64,000 bases of DNA, from positions 126,728,001 through 126,792,000 of the forward strand of contig OZ024744.1 in NCBI GenBank assembly GCA_964016885.1. The letters run 5' to 3'. The stretch's first letter is position 1. Every line of letters starts with the position of its first letter. The translations under genes and the position numbers were made by a program. The notes under the pieces were generated by a model. The model saw only the letters and a list, made by a program, of their open reading frames with translations. It was not told where the DNA came from and made no database searches. Origin of the DNA: Eledone cirrhosa (Eukaryota). Below are positions 1,493 through 62,980 of this stretch, one piece after another.

Positions 1493-1558
1493 TTATGTCT
1501 CCTGTAGAGAACCTTGTCTCTCAGCCAGACAAACTAACAGATACTGTCTCCAAAGAAC
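1493..1558 (+). CDS. Exon A, divergent copy: [22 protein letters not shown]
   Basis: ttttttttccAG|tt atg tct cct ... aaa gaa c|GTAAGT; 66 nt, phase 1-1. Confidence 0.7.
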
Positions 1559-61500: not shown

Positions 61501-62980
61501 TTAATTTAGTCATGAATATCACACTTTATATTACAAACACACTAATATAATCAAGGATAAACATTTTATTCACTTCCATCATCAGAGATCTTACAATGTA
61601 GTCAAAAGTAAAGATACAACTTATCAGCGCATTTTCAGAGTTATCTAAGAAAGAATGACATTATATCTGGTTCAAAAGAGAAGGTGAATGTTGCACTAGA
61701 TATATTGAGGTAGATGGAATTATCAGACACATCGGTGTTCTCATATTTAACAAAATTACCTCCCACACTTCTTCACTATTTCTGGTCCCCCTTCGTTGTT
61801 CATACTCCTCATACACGTATCCAGTAGATCGGCATTGCTCTAAATATTTGGTTATACCATCATATATATTTGTTCTTTAGGACCAGTGGGAACCCGTAAT
61901 ATCTGTATTACGATTCCAGACGCCCCACATATAACTAAAGAGTTATAGCTAATTTAAGATACGACACATTATTCTACCATTTCCTCAAATTGACAACAAT
62001 CTCTTGCCAAGAAAACCTTGTAGCTTTCCTAATATTTTCTTCCGTATTTTATTCCAGTTATTTCCCCTGTAGAGAAATTTGTCTCTGAGCCAAGCATACC
62101 TACTAATGCTGTCTCCAAAGAATGAAAATTGTATTTCAAACACACTTTCTATTAGTCTGTACAGAAAACTATGACACGTGTTTCAACATTAATGTCAAAT
62201 CGAGAATGCATTATATATTTGTAAACATGGAAGTCTATATATTGTGTATGCTGGAACTGATGAATAAAATAGTGTGTATATATATATAAGTGAAGTCATG
62301 CTAGTGTTTTGCGAATGTTGATGTATACACATATGTATATTGGGTTGTATATAACATTAACGAATAACAGTTTGCGTGTGTTTGTCCGTTGGTTTGGTGG
62401 CTTTTTGAGTGTGTGAGCTATGTGTGTGCGTGTGTGACGGTGAGATTCTGTGTACACACACTGTATGCGTGTGTATGTAAGAATAAATTTTAGTTGTAAC
62501 GACTGTTATCATGATTAGAGAAAATTTGGTAGTAAATGTATATTTACGGAGCTAAGACGCCGTGGTCCTGAAACGTTGCATTTATATAAATACGTGAATA
62601 TGTATGTATATATATATATATATATATATATATATATATATATATATATATATATATATATATATATATATATATATATATTTATATATATATATATATG
62701 GCAAGGACATGGTAACTTGGCACTTTTTGTTCTTTAGGCCCAGTGGGAAACTACAATATCTGTCTCATAATACCAGACAGCCCATATATAACTAAATTGT
62801 TCTTGCTAATTTAAAATACAACACCTTATTCTACGTTTTCTTCAAATTGACAACAAACTCTTCCCAAGAAACTCTTCTAGCTTTCCTATTATTTTCTTCC
62901 GTATTCTTTTCCAGTTGTGAGTCCTGTAGACAACATTATCTCTGAGCCATGCATAAAAACAGATGCTGTCTCCAAAAAAG
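1493..62980 (+). CDS. Putative internal part of a multi-exon gene built from tandem symmetric phase-1 exons, encoding a Ser/Thr-rich 42-aa repeat protein (up to ~1,490 aa from the 71 exons with intact sites)
   Basis: Exon A (66 nt) starts: 1493,2456,4079*,4889,6329,7941,9428,11036,12525,14010,15413,16837,18302,19795,21201,22656,24063,25468,26931*,28352,29757,31162,35015,36434,37839,39233,40677*,42137,43560,45015,46430,47835,49315,50795*,52237,53676*,55435,56219,57854*,60491,62058*,62915 (*broken splice site). Exon B (60 nt) starts: 3387,5647,7259,8746,10354,11843,13328,14731,16155,17620,19113,20519,21974,23381,24786,26249,27670,29075,30480,34333,35752,37157,38551,39992,41455,42878,44334,45748,47153,48633,50110,51555,52994,57160,59810,61365. 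Both have a Y-tract+YAG and mostly GTAAGT, lengths divisible by 3, and no stops or indels in the copies read. No expression evidence is available. Confidence 0.72.
1949..2019 (+). mobile_element. 3' fragment of the tRNA-derived SINE
   Basis: cggggtcgataaaataaagttccagt...ggccttgtgcc matches the 3' half of the copy at 3158-3336. Confidence 0.7.
2456..2521 (+). CDS. Exon A, divergent copy: [22 protein letters not shown]
   Basis: tttttttccAG|...gaa c|GTAAAT; 66 nt. Confidence 0.6.
3158..3336 (+). mobile_element. tRNA-derived SINE (Octopus-type)
   Basis: A-box-like TGGCAGTATTGG and B-box-like GAGTTCAAATACC, followed by gccgaggttaactttgcctttcat..cggggccgataaa, which I recall as typical of octopus SINEs. 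It is absent at the equivalent site in young units. Confidence 0.8.
3387..3446 (+). CDS. Exon B, old subtype: [20 protein letters not shown]
   Basis: ttttctttatattttctAG|ct gac aca ... cac aat a|GTAAGT; 60 nt, with the same frame and length as young exon B despite many substitutions. Confidence 0.65.
4889..4954 (+). CDS. Exon A, divergent copy: [22 protein letters not shown]
   Basis: ttcttttccAG|tt gtg agt ... aaa aaa g|GTAAGT; 66 nt. Confidence 0.7.
5647..5706 (+). CDS. Exon B, first copy of the young subtype: [20 protein letters not shown]
   Basis: ttttgtttatgttttctAG|ct gac gct ... gaa aag a|GTAAGT; 60 nt, phase 1-1. Confidence 0.7.
6329..6394 (+). CDS. Exon A, first copy of the young subtype: [22 protein letters not shown]
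   Basis: ttttcttccatatttcttccAG|tt att tca ... aac gaa c|GTAAGT; 66 nt, phase 1-1. Confidence 0.72.
6846..6935. repeat. (TA)n microsatellite, representative of the length-variable tract in nearly every A-to-B intron
   Basis: Directly visible; ranges from ~30 bp (38360-38390) to over 130 bp (18817-18953). Confidence 0.97.
6936..7076. mobile_element. ~141-bp insertion within the (TA)n tract (small non-autonomous element)
   Basis: Non-unit sequence flanked by TA repeats on both sides; absent from most units. Confidence 0.7.
10031..10171. mobile_element. Second copy of the ~141-bp insertion, created by array duplication (offset 3095)
   Basis: Matches 6936-7076 apart from gttc/gctc; same position within the unit. 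Confidence 0.7.
26931..26996 (+). pseudogene. Exon A copy with mutated acceptor (AG>AT)
   Basis: tttcttccAT ttatttcacc in place of ttccAG; donor intact. Confidence 0.6.
31803..32121 (-). repeat. PLE 3' pseudo-LTR segment (left arm of the inverted repeat)
   Basis: Reverse complement of 33816-34134, with no mismatch seen by eye. Confidence 0.92.
32024..32051 (-). ncRNA. Hammerhead-like core in the PLE pseudo-LTR (mirror copy at 33886-33913, +)
   Basis: CUGACGA-U-GUUGCA-gaug-UGCAAC-GAAA has a perfect 6-bp stem II; stems I and III are not convincingly formed. Confidence 0.5.
32328..33815 (-). pseudogene. Truncated PLE reverse transcriptase plus GIY-YIG endonuclease with one in-frame TGA (32631-32633)
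   Basis: RT motifs [34 protein letters not shown] and LPVLDTEL; Cys-rich linker [12 protein letters not shown]; then [33 protein letters not shown]...LYEHARQHH...IREASEI...PKLNRKNEW to TAA at 32328-32330. The first 60 aa of the supplied ORF come from the inverted pLTR. Confidence 0.92.
33816..34134 (+). repeat. Inverted pseudo-LTR copy at the 5' truncation point
   Basis: Reverse complement of 31803-32121; abuts the truncated RT at 33815. Confidence 0.92.
40677..40742 (+). pseudogene. Exon A subtype [21 protein letters not shown] with GA instead of GT at the donor (same defect in copies starting at 4079, 50795, 53676, 57854, 62058)
   Basis: ...aaa gaa c|GAAAAC; acceptor intact, 66-nt frame intact. 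Confidence 0.6.
54247..54561 (-). mobile_element. Partial copy of the hammerhead-bearing non-autonomous element
   Basis: Homologous to 58402-59129; adjoins (TA)n; hammerhead at 54451-54491 with one stem II mismatch. Confidence 0.72.
54568..55099 (+). mobile_element. Non-autonomous Helitron (532 bp)
   Basis: 5' TC start (a|tctatatatataaagctg); short (gtct)n near the 5' end; 3' GC hairpin cccgagcaacgccggg (55072-55087) followed by CTAG|t. Inserted between A and T without a TSD; the empty site is visible at ~59125-59145. Confidence 0.88.
55435..55500 (+). CDS. Exon A, divergent copy: [22 protein letters not shown]
   Basis: ttattccAG|tt tat ata ... gaa c|GTAAGT; 66 nt. Confidence 0.65.
56219..56284 (+). 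CDS. Exon A, divergent copy: [22 protein letters not shown]
   Basis: ttttccAG|...aaa g|GTAAGT; 66 nt. Confidence 0.68.
56931..57109 (+). mobile_element. tRNA-derived SINE (paralog of 3158-3336 through array duplication)
   Basis: Same sequence and same flanks as 3158-3336. Confidence 0.8.
57160..57219 (+). CDS. Exon B, old subtype: [20 protein letters not shown]
   Basis: ttttctAG|...cat a|GTAAGT; 60 nt. Confidence 0.62.
58402..59129 (-). mobile_element. ~1.8 tandem copies (~412-bp period) of a non-coding element carrying a minimal type I hammerhead; retrozyme-like or non-autonomous PLE
   Basis: Direct repeat with hammerhead motifs at 58608-58648 and 59020-59060; no credible ORF; begins in (TA)n. 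Confidence 0.75.
59020..59060 (-). ncRNA. Minimal type I hammerhead ribozyme
   Basis: Minus strand reads CGUUG CUGACGA U AGCU aaua AGCU U GAAA C ua GUA CAGCG: stem I CGUUG/CAGCG, stem II AGCU/AGCU, palindromic stem III ACUAGU, cleavage triplet GUA. Confidence 0.8.
59535..59574. mobile_element. Inverted, internally deleted relic of the 141-bp TA-targeting element
   Basis: gtagataaatc (twice) and tgtttaatatttt are the reverse complements of the two ends of 6936-7076. Confidence 0.65.
59810..59869 (+). CDS. Exon B variant: [20 protein letters not shown]
   Basis: ttttctAG|...agg a|GTAAGT; 60 nt. Confidence 0.65.
60491..60556 (+). CDS. Exon A, divergent copy: [22 protein letters not shown]
   Basis: ttcttccAG|...gaa c|GTAAGT; 66 nt. 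Confidence 0.65.
61136..61314 (+). mobile_element. tRNA-derived SINE (third paralog)
   Basis: Same sequence and flanks as 3158-3336. Confidence 0.8.
61365..61424 (+). CDS. Exon B, old subtype: [20 protein letters not shown]
   Basis: ttttctAG|...aat a|GTAAGT; 60 nt. Confidence 0.62.
62915..62980 (+). CDS. Exon A, divergent copy: [22 protein letters not shown]
   Basis: ttcttttccAG|...aaa g|GTAAGT; 66 nt. Confidence 0.68.

Follow-up and report, generated by a model that had tools for sequence, protein, structure and literature searches.

A satellite-like array in Eledone cirrhosa as the probable middle of a gene from a lineage-specific family of repeat proteins

The stretch of DNA analysed here (the window) covers 64,000 nucleotides of the 3.0-Gb genome of Eledone cirrhosa (assembly GCA_964016885.1, contig OZ024744.1, forward-strand positions 126,728,001 to 126,792,000, or C28:126728001-126792000) and is numbered 1-64000. 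Between 1493 and 62980 it holds a tandem array with 78 exon-like segments on the + strand, 42 of type A (66 nt) and 36 of type B (60 nt). A sequence-only reading of the window had taken this array for the interior of a repeat-protein gene, built from two non-homologous types of splice-flanked segment, both multiples of three in length and open in phase 1. Our counts bear out this description. Phase 1 is open in 78/78 segments and both splice sites are intact in 71 of them. The donor is GTAAGT at 69 of the 78 segments (35 B and 34 A), GTAGGT at the remaining B, GTAAAT at two A and dead at six A (GAAAAT or GAAAAC). Acceptors are TAG in 36/36 B and CAG in 41/42 A, the last A (26931) having CAT and an in-frame AG 15 nt further on; the pyrimidine tracts are strong. 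As a chance control, occurrences of the exon-like pattern were compared: there are 72 on the + strand of the window and none on its - strand, and 170 kb of flanking DNA contain it three times on the + and once on the - strand. No homology was detected between the bodies of A and B exons (z about 3 or less), and their flanks are weakly similar (upstream z mostly 2-6).

The array consists of tandem units of about 1.4 kb that are 92-99% alike, each with one (TA)n tract. The order within the main unit is B (60 nt), an intron of 621-625 nt, A (66 nt) and an intron with the (TA)n tract. B-A alternation is strict from about 5.6 to 54 kb, in the homogenised part of the array (5647..53741, first pair B 5647-5706 and A 6329-6394), where the defects are dead donors in the A exons at 40677, 50795 and 53676 and the dead acceptor at 26931. 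Towards the array ends there are five A-A neighbours, and the cassettes are diverged. On the 5' side (1493..4954) these are A 1493-1558, A 2456-2521, B 3387-3446, A 4079-4144 (dead donor) and A 4889-4954, and on the 3' side (55435..62980) A 55435, A 56219, B 57160, A 57854 (dead donor), B 59810, A 60491, B 61365, A 62058 (dead donor) and A 62915. The B exons starting at 3387, 57160 and 61365 form a subtype, DTSYVSS..., and a repeated piece adjoins their acceptors upstream (3159-3323, 56932-57105 and 61137-61301), duplicated together with the exon; we take it to be related to short interspersed elements. Indels and transposable elements were said to be confined to introns, and they are: among 32 aligned main units, gaps affect 0/126 exon columns and 76/1,175 intron columns, and the ten non-unit stretches of at least 100 nt, including a 2.4-kb retroelement, all lie outside the 78 exons.

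Unique exons, for which the sequence-only reading had pointed to the flanks, lie on both sides of the array. The 100 kb upstream of the window contain no A or B copies. The predicted first coding exon (C28:126725164-126725389, L010:7164-7389) lies 2.8-2.6 kb upstream of the window and has an ATG, an open frame of 75 codons and a phase-1 donor matching the array type; positions 1..1492 (+) form the 3' part of the predicted first intron. An intron leaves the window at its other end (62981..64000, +), and the array continues for 3.4 kb with five further copies in L011, the stretch directly downstream (adding 64000 gives window numbering): B 914, A 1596 (dead donor), B 2305, A 2986 and A 3338. These are followed on the + strand by three single-copy 63-nt phase-1 exons, D (L011:5751-5813), E (8431-8493, GC donor) and F (9040-9102), and by a last exon starting at 9986, whose 21 codons are followed by a stop and, at +206, by AATAAA. 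First and last exons are in frame with the array. When the 80 spliceable exons are joined, the resulting model, which is a prediction from sequence, has a single open frame of 1,733 aa with its stop in the last exon.

The first exon has 17 matches in the genome, 15 of them free of stops: seven at 99-100% identity (the window locus and six on contig C18), three at 95% and seven at 83-85%. The last-exon region has 22 matches. Sixteen of the 17 first exons are followed, 50-225 kb downstream, by a last-exon match on their own strand and contig, and these spans sum to about 1.6 Mb; the 17th pair is split across two small contigs. Arrays are bounded by shared first and last exons at about 17 loci, which supports the earlier claim that the window lies inside a repeat-protein gene. 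Retrocopies are not indicated: each match of exon 1, E or F can be assigned to a gene locus. We surveyed exons in 15 of the 17 gene regions, some older ones in part, calling them by homology and not by splice sites, so that broken copies are counted. The seven young genes have 46-81 predicted exons each, and six of them stay open to the last exon, with 73-81 predicted exons and 1,581-1,751 aa. Older paralogs show other cassette patterns, namely BBBBA then AB, BBA, or mostly B; the BBA paralog has 193 spliceable exons in the portion examined. Peptides of older genes are 14-68% identical to the main types of the window. Copy number and cassette pattern vary between genes, and the 42-aa repeat unit proposed earlier, which holds for the B-A doublets of the window, is one of several patterns in the family. 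The existence of a multigene family with several cassette patterns goes beyond the sequence-only reading, as does the lack of constraint on amino acids described below.

Six near-identical copies lie in both orientations within 4.3 Mb of C18 (5.15-9.38 Mb), an amplicon-like cluster on a small, chromosome-scale contig, and the window's copy on C28 groups with them. Two other paralogs stand head to head, 37 kb apart, at C28:45.21 and 45.25 Mb. Last-exon matches at C28:44234332-44234554 and C28:34244906 have no first-exon match nearby and possibly represent an 18th, truncated or more diverged member. The most diverged member (C28:28.78-28.87 Mb), with a frameshifted exon 1 and six internal exons detected in 90 kb, may retain the layout that preceded the expansion.

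Several relics and repeats accompany the genes. A decayed B-like exon at 922..982 (+) has kept its acceptor, lost its donor and gained an in-frame stop, and is in the identical state in 7/7 young copies; a 33-bp minisatellite of three copies (798-897) lies just 5' of it. A decayed A-like exon interrupted by a GT microsatellite (L011:7281-7323) is present in two older paralogs too. The intron before D contains about 15 copies of a 96-bp repeat (L011:3541-4990), common to the young genes and C28:4.65 Mb, with relatives of 66-84% identity on many other contigs; by eye, one frame of its unit is open, and copies have 1-nt indels. The retroelement in the window (31749..34118, -) was inserted in the (TA)n tract of an A-B intron and has a repeated terminal stretch, a reverse transcriptase-like open reading frame (32631-34010; RVT_1 E 8e-4, under the Pfam cut-off) and a GIY-YIG-like one (32328-32630). 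Its listed relatives are 29-54% identical, one of them named from Octopus bimaculoides, and we presume from its motif that it is Penelope-like.

Stops were counted along spanning trees built from the distinct spliceable exons of normal length in the 15 gene regions. There are none in A exons against 11.8 expected (n=85, P 8e-6) and two in B exons against 18.8 expected (n=188, P 1e-6). In 11 genes, the two other frames have stops in 73/74 and 52/74 distinct A exons, and in 60/163 and 163/163 distinct B exons. Only 8 of 1,000 spliceable copies have a length that is not divisible by three, and in-frame length variants of 45-78 nt are present; length changes are in frame in 10 of 17 distinct exons versus 22 of 121 flank indels (P 8e-4). 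Hence the intron-like rates of stops and frameshifts that would speak against a gene are not seen among the paralogs. A 6-nt indel leaves the frame of exon 1 intact, and this exon is the part with a ratio of non-synonymous to synonymous differences (pN/pS) below 1 (0.16-0.70). Shared first and last exons and rearranged sub-cassettes are not normal for satellites, and the frame constraint and gene boundaries found here set the array apart from an ordinary non-coding satellite. The amino-acid sequence of the repeats is nearly unconstrained, close to neutral.

Exons of this family diverge faster than the introns around them. Compared with older paralogs, exon 1 has diverged by 14-16% and the sequence flanking it by 3-7% (in five of six comparisons, P 2e-5 to 4e-8). 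Identity among the three oldest units compared is 62-68% in the exons, against 70-90% in most intron bins. In the pooled data from 15 non-independent pairs, divergence is 0.32 at synonymous sites (pS), 0.33 at non-synonymous sites (pN) and 0.18 in introns, about a twofold difference. Decay of CpG was considered as a cause and rejected, as it accounts for 0-6 of 12-35 differences. Because divergence is elevated at silent and non-synonymous sites to the same extent, we favour gene conversion that homogenises introns while exon variants persist, which fits as well as positive selection. Homogenised introns with persisting exon variants are mentioned for spider silk genes in the SmPoMuc account (PMC2576457). 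Diversifying selection on the exons is a possible alternative.

The predicted protein has 187 kDa, an isoelectric point of 5.9, 26% serine plus threonine, no tryptophan, six cysteines (three in the head) and 33 Ser-Pro sites. It shows no signal peptide or membrane segment (hydropathy at most 0.97 in 19-residue windows), and its N-terminus has no hydrophobic stretch (best 11-residue hydropathy 0.15). A signal peptide is carried by the SmPoMuc proteins of Schistosoma mansoni, to which we return below. The first 45 residues form a head made of a basic amphipathic helix, a Cys-Pro-Cys hinge and an Arg-rich helix. The helix moment is 0.68, the best of 40 windows chosen, and 1.7% of shuffles reach it. 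AlphaFold2, run on four sequences, gives helices at 3-25 and 29-44 with a confidence score (pLDDT) of 80-93 over the first 40 residues, and then a low-confidence tail. Two older paralogs have a stop two codons into the last exon, and for this reason the C-terminus encoded there looks dispensable.

Homology searches with proteins covered exon 1 and a padded exon A, and the minimum length of the Pfam scan excludes exon B (19 aa). None of 41 candidates among longer proteins was related to exon 1. A profile of four first exons gave a single match among 1.84 billion representatives, an unrelated-looking repeat protein (E 3e-4). Exon A padded with intronic sequence to 40 aa, a weak query, gave none among 2,425 candidates, and the ESM Atlas gave no usable match. 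For exon 1, A, D, E and F no Pfam match passes the cut-off, the only one being a sub-threshold match to PEHE. The catalogued proteins searched include at least one octopus RefSeq model, and our searches of the open-access literature, judged by titles and abstract starts, yielded no account of such a gene family. Among sequencing runs, none recorded as RNA contains the exon-1 stretch, which is present in four runs of a single study whose kind is not on record. Two data sets, X1 and X2, cover 30/30 bins of window positions 5490-6840 without any joint at the splice sites predicted there, and no processed copy was seen. Another, X4 (87.8 million letters, kind not on record), covers five of the 30 bins, none on exons; it has 0.92 of the exon-1 words and lacks the high-copy unit, which might mean an RNA set containing exon 1 and no assembled A/B junctions, and we counted it neither way.

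Taken together, these observations make it very probable that the arrays belong to a real coding gene family. We also think it fairly probable that the window's array is the middle of a protein-coding gene, one of a lineage-specific family of about 17 copies, with a predicted intracellular product of about 187 kDa; and we lean to a similar degree towards the window copy being spliced today with most of its cassettes. Several points weigh against this interpretation. Changes were counted along spanning trees connecting extant copies, and the edges of these trees are not fully independent. In young genes alone the deficit of stops is not significant (A 0 versus 2.9, P 0.056; B 1 versus 2.3, P 0.33), and it is a family-wide, historical signal. 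Splice-dead copies are themselves slightly under the expected number of stops (2 versus 3.9 and 0 versus 2.6), too few for a clean contrast. The AT-rich flanks may gain more indels than exons for reasons of composition alone, and one 66-nt exon classed as A is nearer D and E. Purifying selection on the amino acids of the repeats is not detected (omega about 1.2), and the slight surplus of non-synonymous change is not significant (P 0.10 and 0.14). There are broken members: stops are present in two of the 17 first exons and in an early B exon of one young copy, at least one spliceable exon is frameshifted in five of eight older gene regions, and 57 of 285 A copies of young genes have lost a splice site. 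Finally, composition and turnover are the basis for regarding the tail as disordered, and the FoldIndex of the whole protein is slightly positive (0.13).

There is some chance, although a minor one, that the gene is real and that its main products are short or variable, cassettes being mostly skipped or combined, as in the polymorphic mucin and micro-exon genes of schistosomes, or the message ending soon after exon 1, where read-through of the donor would add three residues before a stop. Every subset of exons keeps the frame, dead donors are recurrent and amplified, weak GTAAAT and GC donors are present, and exons of 60-66 nt are near the size of poor inclusion given in the NBPF literature (PMC9313022). 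Such products fit poorly with the predominance of GTAAGT donors and strong pyrimidine tracts in the window, and with a stop depletion that extends over many cassette types, as if most were translated. That the family once coded and its young copies are now silent, so that the window would now amount to satellite DNA derived from the cassette of a dead gene, we regard as unlikely. Arrays that are 92-99% identical, the non-significant constraint within young genes with omega near 1, and the broken family members speak for it. Yet, six of seven young copies have an unbroken frame over 73-81 predicted exons, the sole stop-bearing 66-nt A exon of the young genes, found once in each of four of them, has lost splicing signals as well, and the upstream and poly(A) regions have been retained.

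Two further possibilities concern the nature of the product. It is improbable, somewhat more so than silence of the young copies, that the protein is a secreted or surface mucin-like one, with a signal-peptide exon that escaped detection at a more upstream position. Phase-1 symmetric modules and Ser/Thr/Pro-rich repeats are typical of extracellular proteins. The repeats of SmPoMuc are similar in composition (PMC2576457). But the ATG is conserved in six copies and has no AG acceptor directly before it in any of them, and the head is basic, not hydrophobic, in a protein with no membrane segment. A non-coding host transcript with repeated small RNAs in its introns would account for introns being more conserved than exons over the whole unit, and is very improbable: frame and stop constraint indicate translation. 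Our Rfam scan of positions 1-8500 found no tRNAs or small RNAs, with no match at gathering score and 13 weak matches all on (TA)n tracts; the introns have no box C motif and no local peak of conservation, and the best hairpin has a z of -3.4 among 42 windows.

Returning to the reading of the array as the middle of a translated gene, we are evenly divided on a wider proposal, that of a fast-turnover family of giant intracellular repeat proteins encoded by as many as about 190 short, symmetric exons in a single gene, where cassette number, pattern and skipping would tune protein length. Internal exons are in phase 1 at both ends and multiples of three, so cassettes, each an exon with its flanking introns, can be gained, lost or skipped with the frame intact. 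On the main reading, arrays would grow and be homogenised by unequal crossing-over and gene conversion, and whole genes would have spread through segmental duplication. Within the wider proposal, and with the same balance of belief and doubt, selection would retain only the reading frame, the anchor and a rough composition.

Parts of this organisation are known elsewhere. SmPoMuc repeats a short exon together with its flanking introns in tandem, the units being about 1 kb long with microsatellites between them, and is a multigene family under concerted evolution, with Ser/Thr/Pro-rich repeats, that is hard to assemble (PMC2576457). The window resembles it by its 1.4-kb units with a (TA)n tract each and by a multigene family whose repeats are homogenised within and between genes. 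It differs from that description, which has one 27-nt exon, up to about 20 repeats and glycosylated products, by its two cassette types of 60 and 66 nt in AB, BBA, BBBBA or poly-B patterns, by up to about 190 exons per gene region and by the lack of any signal peptide or sequence homology found (PMC2576457). The NBPF genes with their Olduvai (DUF1220) repeats also amplified an exon doublet in tandem in a young, primate family (PMC9313022); here there is no Olduvai Pfam match for exon 1, A, D, E or F, both exons are short and each is frame-symmetric alone, and the lineage is different. Primate core-duplicon families such as NPIP and GOLGA8 share interspersed whole-gene duplications and exons that change faster than introns (PMC3906575); the present family differs in that its synonymous sites are raised as much as its non-synonymous ones. 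The micro-exon genes (MEGs) of schistosomes likewise have many short exons whose frame symmetry permits skipping; their proteins are described as secreted, in contrast with tandem copies in homologous intron cassettes and a very large, predicted intracellular protein. In the searches described above the family matched none of these by sequence. Judged on sequence features, it is a likely real gene family, itself undescribed, with a known type of architecture at unusual scale.

What such proteins do can be proposed only tentatively. The head may anchor the protein, by S-acylation to a membrane more likely than in the nucleus, and the Ser/Thr-rich tail might then be a spacer or a phosphorylation platform; we rate this below even, as we do the associated idea that length and composition of the tail matter more than its sequence. 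The analogy is with acylated basic helices, and a nuclear import signal is the alternative for the head. Young, amplified and fast-changing families are often germ-line genes, and a germ-line role here is a guess.

If this interpretation is right, about 1.6 Mb of genes lie in sequence that repeat masking would discard, and standard annotation overlooks an entire young family. Masked as satellite, its genes would be absent from the annotations of this animal lineage; the gene model supplies the exact junctions. The family would also be a natural experiment on how protein repeats grow through the duplication of exon cassettes, with several independent patterns in one genome, and on how introns may come to be more alike than the exons between them.

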